Shown here one piece after another: positions 11,913-47,097 of a stretch of DNA of 64,000 bases. The notes under the pieces are model-generated. The model saw only the letters and a list, made by a program, of their open reading frames with translations, was not told the DNA's origin and made no database searches. The stretch lies in assembly GCF_024502345.1 (NCBI RefSeq), contig NZ_JALDNN010000001.1; one strand, written 5' to 3'. How positions within the stretch are numbered: position 1 is the first letter of the stretch; each line of letters begins with the position of its first letter. Source of the stretch: Escherichia coli. GTDB lineage: Bacteria; Pseudomonadota; Gammaproteobacteria; Enterobacterales; Enterobacteriaceae. A program made the position numbers and the translations under genes.

Positions 11913-11982
11913 GACTTATATCACCTGTGTTTTGCGTGAGCCTGAGCCATACTGATATTTTTCCTCGCACAAAGGACTCGGC

Positions 11983-12591
11983 ATGAAACTCGTCGGTAGC
12001 TACACCAGCCCGTTTGTACGCAAACTTTCTATTCTGTTGTTAGAAAAGGGCATAACTTTCGAATTTATTAATGAACTGCCCTATAACGCGGACAACGGCG
12101 TGGCGCAATTTAACCCGTTAGGAAAAGTGCCGGTGCTGGTGACCGAAGAGGGCGAATGCTGGTTTGATTCGCCGATCATCGCTGAATATATTGAATTAAT
12201 GAATGTCGCTCCGGCGATGTTGCCGCGCGATCCGCTGGAGTCGTTGCGGGTGCGCAAAATTGAGGCACTGGCGGATGGCATTATGGATGCTGGGCTGGTA
12301 TCGGTGCGTGAACAGGCGCGTCCAGCGGCGCAGCAGTCTGAAGATGAATTGTTACGCCAGCGGGAGAAAATCAACCGCAGTCTGGATGTGCTGGAAGGAT
12401 ATCTGGTCGATGGCACACTCAAAACCGATACGGTCAATCTGGCGACTATCGCTATTGCCTGTGCCGTCGGATATCTCAATTTCCGCCGCGTTGCGCCAGG
12501 TTGGTGTGTCGACCGCCCACACTTAGTCAAACTGGTCGAAAACCTGTTTAGCCGCGAAAGTTTTGCTCGCACCGAACCGCCAAAGGCTTGA
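11983..12591 (+). CDS. yibF: Glutathione S-transferase family protein YibF
   Basis: 202-aa ORF recognised as YibF. Confidence 0.9.
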
Positions 12592-12688: not shown

Positions 12689-14080
12689 ATGACAACCGAA
12701 ATGCGTTCCCTCTATAGTCAACTTCCGGCTATTGATCGCTTATTGCGCGATAGCTCCTTCCTTTCTTTGCGTGATACTTATGGTCACACCCGCGTGGTGG
12801 AATTGTTGCGTCAGATGCTCGACGAAGCGCGAGAAGTGATTCGTGGCAGCCAGACGCTGCCTGCGTGGTGTGAAAACTGGGCGCAAGAAGTCGATGCCCG
12901 GTTGACGAAAGAGGCGCAGAGTGCGCTGCGTCCGGTGATCAACCTGACGGGAACCGTGCTGCATACCAACCTTGGGCGAGCTTTACAGGCGGAAGCCGCG
13001 GTGGAAGCCGTTGCGCAGGCTATGCGTTCGCCAGTGACCCTCGAGTACGATCTGGACGACGCCGGACGCGGACATCGCGATCGTGCGCTGGCACAGTTGC
13101 TGTGCCGTATTACGGGGGCGGAAGATGCCTGTATCGTTAATAACAATGCGGCGGCGGTGTTATTGATGTTGGCGGCCACTGCCAGCGGGAAAGAGGTGGT
13201 GGTTTCTCGCGGCGAATTGGTGGAGATTGGCGGCGCGTTTCGTATTCCCGATGTTATGCGTCAGGCAGGCTGCACACTACACGAAGTAGGGACCACCAAC
13301 CGCACGCACGCGAATGATTATCGTCAGGCGGTGAATGAAAATACCGCACTGTTGATGAAAGTACATACCAGTAACTACAGCATTCAGGGGTTCACCAAAG
13401 CGATAGACGAAGCTGAACTGGTGGCGCTCGGCAAAGAGCTGGATGTTCCCGTAGTGACTGATTTAGGCAGTGGCTCGCTGGTCGATCTTAGCCAGTACGG
13501 TTTGCCGAAAGAGCCAATGCCGCAGGAGTTGATTGCGGCGGGCGTCAGTCTGGTGAGCTTCTCCGGCGACAAGTTGTTAGGCGGGCCGCAGGCAGGGATT
13601 ATCGTTGGTAAAAAAGAGATGATCGCCCGCCTGCAAAGCCACCCGCTGAAGCGTGCATTACGCGCGGATAAAATGACCCTCGCGGCGCTGGAAGCCACGT
13701 TGCGTCTTTATTTACACCCTGAAGCTCTGAGTGAAAAATTACCGACCCTGCGCCTGCTTACCCGCAGCGCAGAGGTCATTCAAATCCAGGCACAACATTT
13801 ACAGGCTCCCCTTGCCGCACATTACGGCGCGGAGTTTGCGGTACAGGTTATGCCATGTCTTTCGCAGATTGGCAGTGGTTCGCTGCCGGTTGATCGCCTG
13901 CCGAGCGCGGCATTAACGTTTACACCCCATGATGGACGCGGTAGCCACCTTGAGTCATTAGCCGCCCGCTGGCGTGAATTGCCAGTGCCGGTGATTGGTC
14001 GTATTTATGACGGACGATTGTGGCTGGATTTACGCTGCCTTGAAGATGAGCAACGGTTTTTGGAGATGTTGTTGAAATGA
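12689..14080 (+). CDS. selA: L-seryl-tRNA(Sec) selenium transferase
   Basis: 463-aa ORF recognised as SelA; overlaps selB start by 4 nt. Confidence 0.95.
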
Positions 14081-15921
14081 TTATTGCGACTGCCGGACAC
14101 GTTGACCACGGCAAAACAACCTTATTGCAGGCGATTACTGGCGTAAATGCTGACCGTCTGCCGGAAGAAAAAAAGCGCGGCATGACCATCGATCTCGGCT
14201 ATGCCTACTGGCCGCAGCCGGATGGTCGCGTGCCTGGTTTTATCGACGTACCCGGTCATGAAAAGTTTCTTTCCAACATGCTGGCGGGCGTTGGTGGTAT
14301 CGATCACGCGCTGTTGGTGGTGGCGTGCGATGACGGCGTGATGGCACAGACCCGTGAGCATCTGGCGATTTTGCAGCTGACCGGTAACCCGATGCTGACA
14401 GTGGCGCTGACCAAAGCTGATCGCGTGGACGAAGCGCGTGTTGATGAGGTTGAACGCCAGGTAAAGGAGGTTCTGCGGGAATACGGTTTTGCTGAGGCAA
14501 AACTGTTTATCACCGCAGCAACCGAAGGTCGGGGAATTGATGCCCTGCGCGAGCATCTGCTTCAGTTGCCGGAACGCGAGCACGCCAGCCAACATAGTTT
14601 CCGCCTCGCGATTGACCGCGCATTTACCGTAAAAGGTGCCGGGCTGGTCGTCACCGGTACGGCGTTAAGCGGGGAAGTGAAGGTAGGCGATTCACTCTGG
14701 CTGACTGGTGTAAATAAACCGATGCGTGTACGTGCGCTGCATGCGCAAAACCAGCCAACAGAAACCGCCAATGCCGGGCAGCGTATCGCGCTTAACATCG
14801 CGGGTGATGCGGAAAAAGAGCAGATTAACCGTGGCGACTGGCTGCTTGCCGATGTGCCGCCAGAGCCGTTCACACGGGTGATTGTCGAGCTTCAAACCCA
14901 TACACCGCTGACCCAGTGGCAGCCGCTGCATATTCACCACGCCGCCAGCCACGTCACGGGACGCGTTTCACTGCTGGAAGATAACCTTGCTGAACTGGTC
15001 TTCGACACCCCGTTATGGCTGGCAGATAACGACCGCCTGGTATTGCGCGATATCTCTGCCCGCAACACGCTGGCCGGAGCGCGCGTCGTGATGCTTAACC
15101 CGCCGCGTCGCGGTAAACGTAAACCAGAGTATCTGCAATGGCTGGCTTCCCTCGCCAGGGCACAGAATGATAGCGAAGCGTTAGCCGTTCACCTGCAACG
15201 CGGCGCGGTTAATCTTCCTGATTTCGCCTGGGCGCGCCAGCTCAACGGCGAAGGGATGCGCGAACTGCTGCAACAGCCTGGCTATATTCAGGCTGGTTAT
15301 AGCTTGTTGAATGCGCCGGTTGCCGCTCGCTGGCAACGGAAAATTCTCGGCACATTAGCGACTTATCATGAGCAACATCGCGATGAACCTGGGCCTGGGC
15401 GCGAACGTCTGCGACGTATGGCGTTGCCAATGGAAGATGAAGCGCTAGTACTGTTGCTGATTGAAAAGATGCGCGAAAGCGGCGACATCCTCAGTCATCA
15501 CGGTTGGCTGCATCTGCCGGATCACAAAGCGGGCTTCAGCGAAGAGCAGCAGGCCATCTGGCAAAAAGCAGAGCCGCTGTTTGGTGACGAGCCGTGGTGG
15601 GTGCGTGATCTGGCAAAAGAGACGGGTACCGACGAGCAGGCAATGCGCCTGACGCTACGCCAGGCGGCGCAGCAAGGAATAATTACCGCGATCGTCAAAG
15701 ATCGTTATTACCGTAACGATCGGATTGTCGAATTTGCCAATATGATCCGCGATCTCGATCAGGAGTGTGGTTCAACCTGCGCGGCGGATTTCCGCGATCG
15801 CTTAGGCGTAGGCCGAAAGCTGGCAATTCAGATTCTGGAATATTTTGACCGCATTGGCTTTACGCGTCGTCGTGGAAATGATCATTTATTGCGCGACGCA
15901 TTATTATTTCCGGAAAAATAA
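14077..15921 (+). CDS. selB: Selenocysteine-specific elongation factor
   Basis: 614 aa; GTP-binding motif [11 protein letters not shown] at N-terminus. Confidence 0.95.
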
Positions 15922-19085: not shown

Positions 19086-19509
19086 AAGCGCACGTTGTTA
19101 CAATTTACGTTTTAAACCTACGTGCGCAATAACCCAGACTACGCCAACAGAAGTGCGTTTCTGGGGCGTGTTTTGTCAGGAGTTTAATCTCGCGTTTCGA
19201 TGGTGAGCGGGCGAACCAGGCCGTAAATCACCATTGGTGATCCGAGGCCAATCAGCAATAAACGGTAGATAATTGAAGGTTTAATACGCTTAATCTGTAC
19301 TGTGGATGTTTTACTGGAGTTATTCATTAGTTTGGCCAATAGTTCCACTATTTCAATATGATAAACCTCGTCCTGTTGAAAAACCAGACAGCACATTTCA
19401 GAAAGTATATAAAAAACAATATGTCGTTATATAAATAAGGAAATTGCACTGCATCATGGCATTTCATAATATGCGTTAATTGTTCTTTTTTATATTCTTT
19501 GAGGGAAAT

Positions 19510-19833
19510 ATGTTCCTGGACTATTTTGCACTGGGAGTGCTTATTTTTGTATTTCTGGTGATATTCTATGGGATTATTATTTTACATGATATTCCCTACC
19601 TGATTGCTAAAAAACGTAATCATCCTCATGCCGACGCCATTCATGTTGCTGGTTGGGTGAGTCTTTTTACGCTGCATGTTATCTGGCCATTTTTGTGGAT
19701 TTGGGCCACGCTTTACCGCCCGGAGCGGGGATGGGGAATGCAAAACCATGACTCCTCCGTTGTGCAACTACAACAGCGTATTGCCGGGCTGGAGAAACAG
19801 CTCGCCGACATCAAATCCTCTTCTGCCGAGTAA
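19510..19833 (+). CDS. yiaW: Small inner-membrane protein YiaW (DUF3302), paralog of YibI
   Basis: Begins [21 protein letters not shown], 107 aa; near-identical N-terminal region to YibI. Confidence 0.85.
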
Positions 19834-19838
19834 TACTT

Positions 19839-20975
19839 ATGGATTTACTGATTATTTTGACCTATGTGGCTTTTGCATGGGCAATGTTTAAGATCTTCAA
19901 AATTCCTGTAAATAAATGGACCATTCCCACAGCGGCCCTGGGTGGCATATTTATTGTCAGTGGTTTAATTCTGTTAATGAACTATAACCATCCGTATACC
20001 TTCAAAGCGCAAAAAGCGGTTATTTCTATTCCTGTTGTCCCACAGGTGACAGGTGTGGTGATTGAAGTGACGGATAAGAAAAATACGCTGATTAAAAAAG
20101 GTGAGGTGCTATTTCGACTGGACCCGACGCGTTATCAGGCGCGGGTGGATAGGCTGATGGCGGATATCGTTACCGCAGAACATAAACAGCGGGCGTTGGG
20201 CGCAGAGTTAGATGAGATGGCGGCGAATACTCAGCAGGCAAAGGCCACGCGGGATAAATTCGCTAAAGAGTATCAGCGTTACGCACGCGGCAGCCAGGCG
20301 AAAGTAAACCCGTTTTCAGAACGCGATATTGATGTGGCGCGGCAAAATTATCTGGCGCAGGAAGCCTCCGTAAAGTCATCGGCGGCGGAACAAAAACAGA
20401 TCCAGAGCCAGCTGGATAGCCTGGTGTTGGGTGAACATTCTCAAATCGCCAGCCTGAAAGCGCAGCTCGCGGAAGCAAAATATAACCTTGAGCAGACGAT
20501 AGTGCGTGCGCCGAGCGATGGTTATGTGACCCAGGTGCTGATTCGTCCGGGTACCTATGCCGCGTCGCTGCCGCTACGTCCGGTGATGGTGTTTATACCC
20601 GATCAGAAACGACAAATCGTGGCGCAGTTCCGTCAGAACTCCTTGCTGCGCCTGGCTCCCGGCGATGATGCGGAAGTGGTATTTAACGCTCTGCCAGGCA
20701 AAGTGTTCAGCGGTAAGCTGGCAGCCATTAGTCCAGCTGTTCCCGGCGGAGCTTATCAGTCGACCGGCACCTTACAGACGTTAAACACAGCGCCGGGTTC
20801 AGATGGCGTTATCGCGACCATTGAACTGAATGAGCACACTGATTTGAGCGCTTTACCAGACGGTATTTACGCCCAGGTGGCGGTCTACTCTGATCATTTC
20901 AGCCATGTCTCGGTGATGCGCAAAGTGTTATTACGCATGACCAGCTGGGTGCATTACCTTTATCTCGATCATTAA
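19839..20975 (+). CDS. yiaV: HlyD-family membrane-fusion-like protein YiaV, paralog of YibH
   Basis: 378 aa, collinear with YibH at roughly 75 percent identity by eye. Confidence 0.85.
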
Positions 20976-21946
20976 TCTTCGCTTTCCGCCGCTTGTTCAG
21001 GCCGCAGTTGCTGCGACTGAGCAAGCTGGTGGCGAATTTCACGCAGCATTTCATCCAGCACATACTGGACCCGCCAGGGCTGGTATTCCCGTTTACGGAA
21101 GATAGCCACCAGATCCAGCCACCATTCATACGGGTGCTGAAAGCAGGGCACCAGCGTGCCGTCTTGCAGATCGCTCTGCACACTTTTGTCTGGCGCAAAC
21201 ACAATCCCCAGGTGATTTCGTGCCAGCTCCAGCGCCGATTGCGTGTTGTCGCAAACGTAATTTCCCTTCACGCGATAATCCCGCACCTCTTTACTCCCAG
21301 CGACGTTGAAGCGCCAGATATTCGCGTCGTCGATCATCATCGAGTCGATCAAAATACAGGAGTGATGTTCGAGTTCGTCAGGACGGCTAATGGGATGTTT
21401 CTCAAGATAGCGCTGGCTGGCATAAGCGGTTACGGCATATTGGGTAATAAAACTGGCAACCAGCGATTCATCTTTTGGTGGGGCATAGCTGATTAAAACA
21501 TCACAATCATCAGGAAATTCGACGCCTTCATAAAAGGCATTACGCTCAAGATTGCAGGTTTTTAGCGATAAGGTGATATCACCGATATCTTTAATTTTAT
21601 CGATTACATGTTTGGATAAATAGGTAATTATGCCGGTTGGGGCGTAGATGGTGACCCGACCACGTTTCTCATGCTTATAATCTGCAATAAAATTATTAAG
21701 CTGCTCGTTTCTGTCCAGCATGTCGTTGATGTACGGTAACAGCGCGGTACCAAAAGGTGTGAGCATCAGCTGCCGGGTGGTTCGGTCAAAGACTTTTAAA
21801 CCCACTTTTGATTCAAAATCAGCAAGGTATTTGCTGACGTTGGCCTGTGCGATGCCAAGTACAGTCGCGGCATGGCTGATATTTTCACTGGCAGCGATTA
21901 CCGAGATAATTTTTAACTCCCGGTACTTAAGTTGTAATTTTGTCAT
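20972..21946 (-). CDS. yiaU: LysR-family transcriptional regulator YiaU
   Basis: 324 aa with N-terminal HTH; convergent with yiaV, 4-bp stop overlap; divergent from yiaT. Confidence 0.88.
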
Positions 21947-22939: not shown

Positions 22940-24910
22940 TTACGGATGGCAATGCTTTTCCTCATTCACCCAGATCTTCATTTCGCCTTCACCCCGGTTA
23001 GCCCAGCTAAACCACGGGATAAAGGTCAGAGTTTGCGGCTGGCGTTTGGCTGGGGCATAGTCGTAATGCCACAACGGTTGTTGTTCTGGATTGCTCTGTT
23101 CATACCGGTAACCCGGTGCCTGGATTAAGATCTTATGGCTGAACAATCCCTTACCTTCAAATGTCGTAAATGGCGCATCGGCGGGCAGCCACAGATTATG
23201 CAGTGACTCGCCGTTGTCGGCCTGTTCCAGGCAATACACCAGCAGGCCGCGCTGAATCGCCACTTTTCCGGCGACGTGACGCACCAGCGGGTTACCGTAA
23301 ACGCGGCGTACCGGCATCGGCAAAGTCAGATTCAGCGTATCGCCCTCCTGCCATTCGCGGGTAATGTGCAAATACCCTTTACGAATATCCTGCTCGACCT
23401 CTTCCCCATTCAATATGATCTGCGGCTGTGTGCACCAGTCCGGCAGACGTAAAGCCAGCGTATGACGTACCGGCTGGGGCGATTCAACCGCAATCGTCAC
23501 CTGCTCCTGCCACGGATAGTTCCCGCTAACCCGCAGGCGCAGCGTGCCATTTTCTACCGGCACTTCCATGCTGTTTCCTGCGTAGATGTTGATATACAAC
23601 GCATCTTCACGCGGCGTGTAGAGATAATGACCAATCGAGGTCAGCACGCGGGCGATATTTGGCGGACAACAAGCGCAGCCAAACCAACGCTGGCGGATCG
23701 GTTTAACGTGATCGTAGATATGGTTGAATTTCAGCGATTTTGGATGTACTTCCAGCGGATTCACATAGAAGAAATGTTTGCCATCCAGCGCCATGCCGCC
23801 GAGCACGGTGTTGTACAGTGCGCGCTCCATCACATCGGCATATTGACTGTCGCCTTCCATTTCCAGCATTCGTCGGGCAAACATCATCAGGCCGATGGAG
23901 GCGCAACTTTCAGCGTATACCGTGTCATTCGGCAGATCGTAATCGCTAGTGAACGCTTCGCCGCTGCTTTGCGAGCCAATGCCGCCGGTAATATATAACT
24001 GACGCTGGGCCATATTGTTCCACAGCCGCAGGCAGTCCTGACGCTTGCTGTCATCGTGACTTAAACGCGCGAGATGCGCGACGCCGGTCATCAGATAGAC
24101 AAAACGTACCGCGTGACCGATGGCGGTTTGCTGTTGCGCAAGGGGCAAATGTGCCTGGCTGTAGGCTTTGTCTTTCACCATCCACGCCGGGCCGTAGGTG
24201 TGCCAGTGCGATGTCTGCCCGCGCTTTTCATATTCCTGGTCGTAATAGTGCGGTTGCGCACCACGCTGTTCGACAAAATAGTTCGTCAGCGCCAGGTAGC
24301 GCGGCTCTTCAGTCACTTCATACAGGCGCATTAGTGCCAGTTCAATTTCCGGGTGACCAGGATAACCGTGTAACTTACTTTCATCTGGACCAAATACGCT
24401 GTCGATATTATCGGCCAGGCGGCAAACGACCCCCAGCAAGCGCCGTTTTCCCGTGGCCTGGAAGAAGGCGACTCCGGCTTCAATCAGATGACCTGCGCAG
24501 TAAAGTTCATGACACTCCGCCAGATTGCTCCAGCGTTCTTCGGGTGCTTTTACCGTAAAGTAAGTATTGAGATAGCCGTCTTCGCATTGGGCGGAGGCGA
24601 TCAGTTCGATTACCTCGTCGGCGGTTTTTTCCAGTTCGGCGTCCGGCTTCTGGCACAGCGACCAGGCTACCGCTTCCAGCCATTTGGCGACGTCGCTGTC
24701 CTGAAACACCATCCCGTAAAATTCACCCTCCTGAAGTCCGGCGGCAATGCGAAAGTTTTCAATCGCATGGCTGGGTTCCGCTTCTGGGATACGATCGTTC
24801 AAGGCATCCCACTGATAAGGAATCACCACGTCGCGGACCAGTTGTTGGTACTGACCGAGGAACGGATCGCTGACCGTCAGTTTATGCAGATCGACTTCCG
24901 AAATGTTCAT
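22940..24910 (-). CDS. Glycoside hydrolase family 127-like enzyme (beta-L-arabinofuranosidase family, DUF1680)
   Basis: About 656 aa from ATG at 24910 with AAGGAG RBS. Contains E-x-C (ESCAS) and, about 77 residues later, CACCPPN, matching the spacing of the Zn-binding/catalytic Glu338/Cys340 and Cys417/Cys418 of HypBA1 as I recall it. Confidence 0.7.
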   Translation of the reverse strand: MNISEVDLHKLTVSDPFLGQYQQLVRDVVIPYQWDALNDRIPEAEPSHAIENFRIAAGLQEGEFYGMVFQDSDVAKWLEAVAWSLCQKPDAELEKTADEVIELIASAQCEDGYLNTYFTVKAPEERWSNLAECHELYCAGHLIEAGVAFFQATGKRRLLGVVCRLADNIDSVFGPDESKLHGYPGHPEIELALMRLYEVTEEPRYLALTNYFVEQRGAQPHYYDQEYEKRGQTSHWHTYGPAWMVKDKAYSQAHLPLAQQQTAIGHAVRFVYLMTGVAHLARLSHDDSKRQDCLRLWNNMAQRQLYITGGIGSQSSGEAFTSDYDLPNDTVYAESCASIGLMMFARRMLEMEGDSQYADVMERALYNTVLGGMALDGKHFFYVNPLEVHPKSLKFNHIYDHVKPIRQRWFGCACCPPNIARVLTSIGHYLYTPREDALYINIYAGNSMEVPVENGTLRLRVSGNYPWQEQVTIAVESPQPVRHTLALRLPDWCTQPQIILNGEEVEQDIRKGYLHITREWQEGDTLNLTLPMPVRRVYGNPLVRHVAGKVAIQRGLLVYCLEQADNGESLHNLWLPADAPFTTFEGKGLFSHKILIQAPGYRYEQSNPEQQPLWHYDYAPAKRQPQTLTFIPWFSWANRGEGEMKIWVNEEKHCHP

Positions 24911-24920
24911 CTTGTGCTCC

Positions 24921-26321
24921 TTAAGGCTGTACATGACGCTGACGCAGGTCGGTAGCTATGCGTGACATCATAGGATTATTGAGTTTGCAAAAGCGGATCG
25001 CCCCTGCCAGCAGCAGGTGGAATAGCGCAGGCAGTAATGTTTCCATCGCCGCGATCCCGCCAAGCGAACTGGCGGTCTGGTTTTCCACGCCAGGCTGGTA
25101 GGCGACAAAAATAAACAGCAGGCTGATGATCCCGGCGCTGGAGGCCCAGGCCAGCTTGATGAAAAACAGATTGAAGGCGAAGTTCATGCCGGAAGAACGT
25201 ACGCGGGTTTTCCACTCGCCGTAGTCATCGGCAAAGGCCATCAATGAGAAGTGCAGTGGCAATGTGAAGCCAAGAATTACGCCATTACCGAGGATCACCG
25301 CCAGCCACAGCGTTTGATAAGCCGGGCCGGAGGGCAGGAACCACATCAACACCGCCAGCGCAGCGAGGAGCAGGTTGGTGTAGTAGTAAATTTTGACGGT
25401 ATCGAAACGCCGCGTTAACGGGCTGACAATCACCGAGCCGATAATGGAGGCGAAGGTGACCATGGTGAAGAACAGCGACGTGTAGCCCGTACTGCCTTGT
25501 AAGACGTAGGTAATGAAGTACATATACCCACCGCCGCGAATGTTAAAGACGTTAATCAGCAGGAAAGACATGACCAGCATCAGCAGCAGTTGGTCGTTGT
25601 TCCGCAGCCCGGCAAGATGTTCGCGCAGGGTAAATTTCCCCATTGTGGAGAGCGGCACCCGTTCACGAACCCAGAAGAAACAGCACAGGAACATCACCAC
25701 GGCAATGGCGCACAATACCCCGACGCCCAGTTGATAGCCGCGTGCAGCGTTGCCCTGACCGAAGAGATCTACCATCCACGGTAAGCCTACCGAAACCAGA
25801 AATCCCGCTACGCCGCAGAGAACGAATCGCCAGGGCTGGCAGGAGATCACTTCATTGTGGCGGGTGGTCATGGTGTTGATCAGCGCGCAGTACGGTACGT
25901 TGATGGCGGTATAACCGACTGAAAGGAGCAGGTAAGTACCGAACGCCCAGGCGATTTTTACTCCCATGCTGGCATCTGGCACGGTGAACGTCAGGATGCC
26001 GATAATGCCGATGGGAATGGCAATCCATAGCTGCCACGGACGAAAGCGCCCCCAGCGACTTTGCGTCCGGTCGGCAATGACGCCCATCACCGGGTCGGAG
26101 ATGGCATCAAACACGCGCAGTGCAATAAACAGCGTGCCAACCAGCGCCGGAGTTAATCCAAAAACGTCGGTGTAGAAAAAGGTGAGAAAATTCATGATCA
26201 GGCAAGTTATTACGGTGCCGCCTGCGTCACCCAGGCCGTAGCCTATTTTTTCCCGTACAGATAACGCATCGTCAATTTTACCTTTAGCGATATCAGCGGT
26301 AGTAATCGGTGTAGAGGTCAT
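24921..26321 (-). CDS. Glycoside-pentoside-hexuronide (GPH) family sugar:cation symporter (MelB-like)
   Basis: 466 aa, multi-TM; N-terminal GYGLGD motif typical of GPH transporters; immediately upstream of and co-directional with the GH127 gene. Confidence 0.75.
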
Positions 26322-26546
26322 AGATATTCCTCGTGAATAGGGAGCAATTTTTAGTTTTATTGAAATGACCTGATTAATTCTGCCGTGAACGGGAATATCA
26401 ACAAGGCGAGAAAAGAGTAAAAAAAGGTGACGATTCCGACCTGAATTTAAAAGTGTGAAATGGATCAGGTGAAATTAATGTTTTTGATTAATAATCAAAA
26501 GGTAATGTGTTTAATCATTAATGAATAAGCGGGAAATTACATATCA
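26322..26546. promoter_or_regulatory. Divergent promoter region between the GPH-GH127 operon and the AraC-family regulator gene
   Basis: 225-bp AT-rich intergenic region between divergent starts; contains a partial CRP-like motif tgtgaaatggatcagg. Confidence 0.4.
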
Positions 26547-27362
26547 ATGCTCGAATTATCCATGACGTTACCGATTAAAGTGCAAAATGGTGGATTATTT
26601 ATTTCCCGTGGCGTAGGGAGGCATCCTGCAAGGCGGCTGGAGTCATGGGAAATTATCTTTGTCGAAAAAGGTCGATTAACGATTCAGGAAGAAGAACGGA
26701 TATTTCTGGTCGATGCGGGAGAGAGTTTATTACTCTGGCCGAACCGACAACATGTTGGGGTGGAGGATTTTCCCGCCGATCTCAAATTTTACTGGCTGCA
26801 TTTTGAGGTTAAAGCGCCGGACAACGACCCTCGCTGGCTTACTCATCTTAGCGTGCCGCAACAAACGAAGGTTGTCGATCCGCAGGCGCTGGTGGCCCTG
26901 TTTCGCCAGTTCTTAAGCGAACAGGAAAAGCATCAACGCACTCCGGCGCTGGAGTTTATTGTGCTGCTCATTTTGCAGCAGCTCACCCGTGACGCGCGTC
27001 TTGATGAACAGGCCGATGGCGCAGGCACCACCCTTGCCTGGAAAGCGCAGAAACTGATCCGCACGCAATATCATCGCCCGCTTTCTACGGCGCTTCTGGC
27101 CCGCGAGCTGTACTGCAATGCCGATTATCTTGGGCGCGTCTACCGGCGGGTGTTTCATCTGACGTTAACAGAAGCAATCCATCGCCAGCGGGTGCGCGAA
27201 GCCGAAAAGCTGTTAATTAGCGAAGCGCGATCGCTCACGGAAGTGGCGGCGTTGTGCGGGTTTAATGACGTTGGCTATTTCCGGCAGATTTTTCGCAAAC
27301 ACACCGGTTTAACGCCAGCAGCGTGGAAGCGGCGTTACAGCAAGGAACATATCAATTCGTAG
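26547..27362 (+). CDS. AraC/XylS-family transcriptional regulator
   Basis: 271 aa; cupin-like N-terminal half and C-terminal double HTH (RELYCNADYLGRVYRR ... VGYFRQIFRKHTGLTPAAWKRRY). Confidence 0.8.
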   Translation: MLELSMTLPIKVQNGGLFISRGVGRHPARRLESWEIIFVEKGRLTIQEEERIFLVDAGESLLLWPNRQHVGVEDFPADLKFYWLHFEVKAPDNDPRWLTHLSVPQQTKVVDPQALVALFRQFLSEQEKHQRTPALEFIVLLILQQLTRDARLDEQADGAGTTLAWKAQKLIRTQYHRPLSTALLARELYCNADYLGRVYRRVFHLTLTEAIHRQRVREAEKLLISEARSLTEVAALCGFNDVGYFRQIFRKHTGLTPAAWKRRYSKEHINS

Positions 27363-46979: not shown

Positions 46980-47060
46980 ACCGAAAGGCAGACAGAGAAA
47001 AGCCCCACCTGACTATAAATCAAAGTGAGGCTACCCTATGCCTGAACACCATAAGGTTAG
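46980..47060 (-). ncRNA. sokA: Putative SokA antisense RNA of the hokA/sokA type I toxin-antitoxin locus
   Basis: Placed by analogy with hok/sok loci, where Sok is antisense to the mok translation-initiation region (here the mok-like ATG at 47038). Boundaries approximate; no promoter or terminator mapped. Confidence 0.3.
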
Positions 47061-47097
47061 CCTCTTACTCGTTGGAAATCAACACAGGGGGCTGGGA

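Follow-up and report, generated by a model that had tools for sequence, protein, structure and literature searches.

The window, the whole 64-kb stretch of E. coli DNA analyzed here, encodes yibI, yibH, yibF, selA, and selB head-to-tail on one strand (Table 1). The list of open reading frames for the window gives a yibH-yibF gap of 11913-11982, and the initial statement of the sequence-only reading, that only 70 bp separate the two genes, is true (yibH stop at 11912, yibF ATG at 11983). The names yibH and yibF follow the RefSeq annotation of near-identical genomes. The name yibI is also taken from the annotation of near-identical genomes, and the gene is collinear with K-12 b3598. YibH matches the EmrA, MdtN, and RND adaptor families in NCBIfam, and YibF matches the equivalog PRK10357 (407.7 bits, E=7e-123, residues 1-202 of 202). 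Both genes are full-length and collinear with the K-12 flanks, and no flanking gene sequence has been lost. About 8 kb downstream of yibI-yibH (10411-11912) is a paralogous pair, yiaW-yiaV (~19500-21000), which likewise encodes a DUF3302 protein and an HlyD adaptor. The two pairs share ~69% nucleotide identity and 75-78% protein identity, and pairs of the yiaW-yiaV type account for second matches in the outgroup loci too.

Table 1. Features of the yibH-yibF site and its surroundings, in window coordinates.
Feature	Position	Strand	Description	Basis
mtlA	7961-9874	-		ORF and NCBIfam MtlA match (the SelA, SelB, and MtlA matches are to equivalogs or subfamilies)
yibI	10411-10773	+	DUF3302 protein, 120 aa; first gene of the yibI-yibH pair	ORF
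yibH	10776-11912	+	HlyD-family membrane-fusion/adaptor protein, 378 aa; left flank	ORF
yibH-yibF spacer	11913-11982	+	unoccupied RhsA attachment site, 70 bp	ORF coordinates
32 bp (ACTTATATCACCTGTGTTTTGCGTGAGCCTGA)	11914-11945	+	present in the empty allele only	BLAST and manual alignment to K-12
CATACT	11948-11953	+	-10-like hexamer	invariant alignment columns C54, A55, T56, A57, and T59 (CATAnT across genera)
AGGA	11973-11976	+	Shine-Dalgarno core, 6 nt upstream of the yibF ATG	invariant alignment columns A79, G80, G81, and A82
yibF	11983-12591	+	glutathione S-transferase-like protein, 202 aa; right flank	ORF
selA-selB	12689-15921	+	selenocysteine synthase and SelB elongation factor	ORFs, TIGR00474 and TIGR00475 equivalogs
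selA	12689-14080	+		ORF, TIGR/NCBIfam SelA match
selB	14077-15921	+		ORF, NCBIfam SelB match

Alignment of the spacer across genera revealed two invariant blocks, CATAnT and AGGA. Judging from this cross-genus conservation, the CATACT hexamer is a putative yibF promoter core. A scan of 11700-12100 found no consensus sigma-70 promoter and no intrinsic terminator. Folding of the RNA from 11880-11985 was no better than that of shuffled sequences (z = 0.87) and gave no terminator or structured RNA, and an E-value scan of 11700-12200 returned no match in Rfam. Over the same 11700-12200 interval, the only repeats were chance-level short direct repeats inside yibF, and there were no inverted repeats. 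Because no terminator is detectable, transcripts that start at yibIH could continue into yibF-selAB where the site is empty.

In K-12 MG1655 (NC_000913.3), yibF (3761347-3761955) and yibH (3770243-3771379) are 8,287 bp apart, and the interval contains rhsA, yibA, yibJ, yibG, yibS, yibW, yibV, and yibU. The premise of the sequence-only reading, that rhsA and associated yib genes occupy this position in K-12, is correct, and the adjacency of yibH and yibF that would have spoken against it does not occur in MG1655. By BLAST, the window is 98.5% identical to K-12 as far as 11913, one base beyond the yibH TGA, and 99.5% identical from 11946 onward, on the yibF side. The alignment to K-12 suggested as a check therefore defines the empty-site junction exactly, with breaks at 11913/11946 and 32 bp here versus 8,249 bp (48.8% G+C) in K-12. 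On the yibH side, the window reads TGAG/ACTTATATCACC... (beginning TGAG/ACTTAT) and K-12-type alleles read TGAG/GGGGAGGGGGG... On the yibF side, the window reads ...GAGCCTGA/GCCATACTG (ending ...CCTGA/GCCATACTG) and K-12-type alleles read ...CCCATCACCAG/GCCATACTG, also written ...CATCACCAG/GCCATACTG. The K-12-type junction sequences are absent from both sides of the yibH-yibF site in the window. The -10-like box lies just past the Rhs junction at 11945/11946, on the yibF side, and is therefore retained in occupied alleles.

The K-12 RhsA element thus lies at the same site, bounded by yibH and yibF with flanks 98.5-99.5% identical to those of the window, but its 8,249 bp are missing from the window and the 32 bp of the window are missing from K-12. 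Neither the 8,249-bp element (blastn) nor K-12 RhsA, YibA, YibG, and YibV (tblastn) has a match anywhere in the 64-kb window. No large rhs core ORF (~1,377 aa, with YD repeats) is present between yibH and yibF of the window, where there are 70 bp only. The 32 bp show only a weak 19-nt partial match to the K-12 element, which we take as chance. Comparison of the first and last 150 bp of the K-12 element revealed no terminal direct or inverted repeats, and there is consequently no evidence of transposon-like ends or of a target-site duplication. The claim that this strain lacks the RhsA polymorphic toxin locus at yibH-yibF is supported, given that no Rhs-related sequence occurs in the window; the scope of this absence is the 64-kb window, not the rest of the genome of the strain.

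Population frequencies were counted over 5,426 complete E. coli genomes. The empty junction is contiguous in ~28% of them (1,523/5,426 with a yibH-yibF query and 1,521/5,426 with a 181-bp junction query). K-12-type junctions occur in ~69% (the yibF-rhsA junction in 3,738/5,426 and the yibH-side junction in 3,723/5,426), and in the occupied genomes that were sampled the match to the window starts exactly at 11946. One O157:H7 genome has a 6.5-kb variant of the RhsA element at the site (locus L061, 7504-14037). A third state, found in ~74 of the 5,426 genomes (e.g., Ec15103; locus L060, 1635-12063), is a 10.4-kb island that encodes an HTH protein, a chaperone-usher fimbrial operon, and an S6-family (SPATE) autotransporter. 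The spacer takes at least three states in E. coli. The fimbrial/SPATE island has no BLAST homology to the Rhs element and is absent from the window, and its position in the same intergenic site shows that the spacer is a recurrent insertion point.

The genomes with an empty site include enteropathogenic E. coli (EPEC) E2348/69 (O127:H6) and many O145:H28 strains. The Rhs-free allele of these strains and of FDAARGOS_943/944 matches the window in gene order and in its contiguous 70-bp spacer. Across Rhs-free E. coli alleles, the junction is 97.8-100% identical to that of the window, with point substitutions only. Most of the sampled empty-site genomes, including E2348/69, differ from the window at ~4/181 positions, and a minority (strains 7/2 and GF60) have exactly the spacer allele of the window. 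The window is from E. coli sensu stricto, and around the site it shares 98.5% identity with K-12. Among complete genomes, the nearest are those of two chicken isolates (99.8% over 32000-56800) and FDAARGOS_943/944.

An outgroup scan with YibF, using one genome per species, returned 55 loci; the outgroup set is without E. fergusonii and Salmonella, neither of which was recovered by the peptide-pattern scan. In the outgroup loci listed here, yibH is directly upstream of yibF, 61-174 bp away, with no rhs within 10 kb. These loci are from E. whittamii, Escherichia sp. E1V33, two divergent species representatives labeled 'E. coli' (L003 and L004), Citrobacter amalonaticus, C. koseri, Kluyvera cryocrescens, Lelliottia, Huaxiibacter, Pluralibacter, and several uncultured Enterobacteriaceae. 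The adjacency extends to at least eight other genera. In E. whittamii, E1V33, L003, and L004, the spacer is 70 bp long, has few substitutions relative to the window, and includes the 32 bp that are missing from K-12. The spacer of C. amalonaticus is partly conserved. Overall identity between the outgroup Escherichia loci and the window is 90-95%, which indicates that they are true outgroups. The gene order in the outgroups and the shared spacers together argue that the empty site is ancestral and that the RhsA element is derived.

We conclude, with a probability of roughly 93%, that the allele at the RhsA site of the window is unoccupied and of the ancestral type. None of the results speaks against such an allele. 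The proposal of an ancestral empty site is borne out both by the 70-bp spacer, whose 32 bp are kept in other Escherichia, and by the adjacency of the genes in other genera. The sequence-only reading had offered this state or a lack of the toxin locus as an either-or; both halves hold, but they are not alternatives as it worded them. An ancestral empty site agrees with the work of Jackson et al. 2009 (PMC2935791), in which yibF/yibH is rhs position (locus) 10 and is variably present between strains. The same authors inferred that a basal group of pathogens, which is without the clade I rhs expansion, had split off before locus 10 arose (Jackson et al. 2009, PMC2935791).

Two further Escherichia loci differ from those above. 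In the non-coli Escherichia sp. MOD1-EC7003 (locus L007, 1-2962), only the last 184 bp of a K-12-type RhsA element adjoin yibF, and an ISAs1/H-repeat-like fragment and other ORFs lie upstream of this remnant. The arrangement resembles an Rhs element that has decayed or been replaced, in a genome that lies outside E. coli proper. A K-12-type right junction in a lineage that is not E. coli implies that the RhsA element is old or has moved between lineages. In E. albertii NBRC 107761 (locus L008, 89-781), the ORF directly upstream of yibF encodes 230 aa and is neither yibH nor rhs; by eye, it looks MOSC-like. From the same GCCATACTG point onward the sequence is again homologous to E. coli, and the contig does not reach the yibH side.

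Under the history that we propose, K-12-type strains would have exchanged 32 bp of the native spacer for a composite of ~8.2 kb, made up of the rhsA YD-repeat toxin gene, one or more immunity genes, orphan tips, and H-repeat remnants. The native 70-bp spacer carries the yibF ribosome-binding site and the conserved -10-like box. In the lineage of the window, the exchange would either never have happened or have been undone when an empty allele was regained via recombination. For the latter, an ancestor bearing RhsA would have recombined homologously with Rhs-free DNA, with crossovers in yibH and in yibF-selA. E. coli recombines frequently, and the flanks of the site are of unequal affinity: the yibF-selB side, on the right, is 99.4% identical to the RhsA-bearing O157:H7 genome and the yibH side, on the left, is 98.5% identical. 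This indicates mosaicism and leaves room for allelic replacement. The contrast between O145:H28 strains, which are empty, and the one O157:H7 genome, which is occupied, also fits such a replacement. However, there is no positive evidence of a past occupant in the lineage of the window, and we consider this secondary reversion unlikely, at something like one chance in several. The allele that it would produce is the same as the ancestral one, so it would alter the history of the site and not what is present there. Unbroken vertical descent and recombinational regain of the empty allele cannot be told apart.

Deletion in place, with the RhsA element excised and the 70 bp left as a scar, is a different matter. 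Rhs elements are known to undergo recA-dependent rearrangement (Jackson et al. 2009, PMC2935791), but a deletion could not recreate the 32 bp that are missing from K-12-type alleles and is excluded on this ground. These 32 bp are common to the Rhs-free Escherichia species, no Rhs remnant exists within the 64-kb window, and the K-12 element is without terminal direct or inverted repeats that might mediate precise excision. With the full ancestral 32 bp present, no remnants of the element, and no loss from the flanks, the deletion scar is effectively refuted and we regard it as highly improbable. Short-read assemblies can break at Rhs cores, which are repeats several kilobases long and present in multiple copies, but a false joining of yibH to yibF by collapse or loss of a repeat-rich Rhs element is more improbable still. 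The junction contains the particular 32 bp of the ancestral sequence, and ~1,520 genomes that were finished independently show exactly the same junction, whereas a collapsed assembly would have brought K-12-type junction sequences together.

The ancestral-type empty allele places this strain among the ~28% of sequenced E. coli with the ancestral yibIH-yibF-selAB arrangement. The strain is without the RhsA toxin/immunity cassette at yibH-yibF and hence without whatever contact-dependent competition or RhsA-type toxin immunity that cassette gives. In the 1990s, C. W. Hill's laboratory reportedly found variable rhs at yibF/yibH in the ECOR collection and described both Rhs-free strains and the limits of the element. 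Variable rhs at yibF/yibH is already known (Jackson et al. 2009, PMC2935791), and the difference between strains is common and ordinary. The exact junction (32 bp versus 8,249 bp, with breaks at 11913/11946) is a useful marker, not a discovery, and its importance beyond the description of this strain is very little.

Some features of the occupied alleles might point to cassette exchange. A common start, GGGGA[G/A]GGGG right after TGAG at the yibH stop, is shared by the RhsA element and the fimbrial/SPATE island, which are unrelated. At the other end, the 30 nt of the K-12 element next to the yibF-side junction (ACATTTTCTGCCCTTTTTCCCATCACCAGG; locus L001, 5993-6022, minus strand) resemble the ancestral spacer of other Enterobacteriaceae (local alignment score of 12 versus 7.5 +/- 1.4 for shuffles, p about 0.01). 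The yibF-proximal spacer may therefore persist in the occupied allele in diverged form, and this allele may have arrived whole, with a foreign spacer, from another lineage. The true novel joint may lie ~25 nt further into the K-12 element. Given the shared start of two unrelated islands and the spacer-like 30 nt, the yibH-yibF spacer could be a multi-state cassette-exchange hotspot, at which whole alleles, each an island with a foreign spacer, would have come from other lineages by flank recombination, or at which an unrecognised site-specific mechanism would act. We view this as a long shot.

The window differs from K-12 at several other places. Positions 1-4585, beyond yibL, are non-K-12 DNA; in K-12, lldP directly follows yibL. 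The window starts within the 3' part of a large gene for a YadA-like trimeric autotransporter, on the minus strand, which runs off the edge, and a DUF3251 gene follows at 3902-4585 (minus strand). Both genes have the same annotation in FDAARGOS_944. At 22940-27362, genes for a GH127 beta-L-arabinofuranosidase, an MFS_2 sugar transporter, and an AraC-family regulator replace the K-12 yiaK-yiaL-yiaMNO-lyxK-sgbHUE operon (K-12 3741825-3750800 is absent). In O157:H7, yiaT is followed by this same GH127 gene. A five-gene chaperone-usher fimbrial operon that is absent from K-12 lies between yhjX and eptB (57226-62719) and encodes a major subunit, a PapD-like chaperone, an usher, and two further fimbrial subunits. 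Its position is presumably that of the long polar fimbriae operon (lpf1, O-island 141) of O157:H7. Finally, the IS150 found next to hokA/sokA in K-12 (3720633-3722075) is absent at 47026-47066 of the window, leaving the hok/sok locus uninterrupted.
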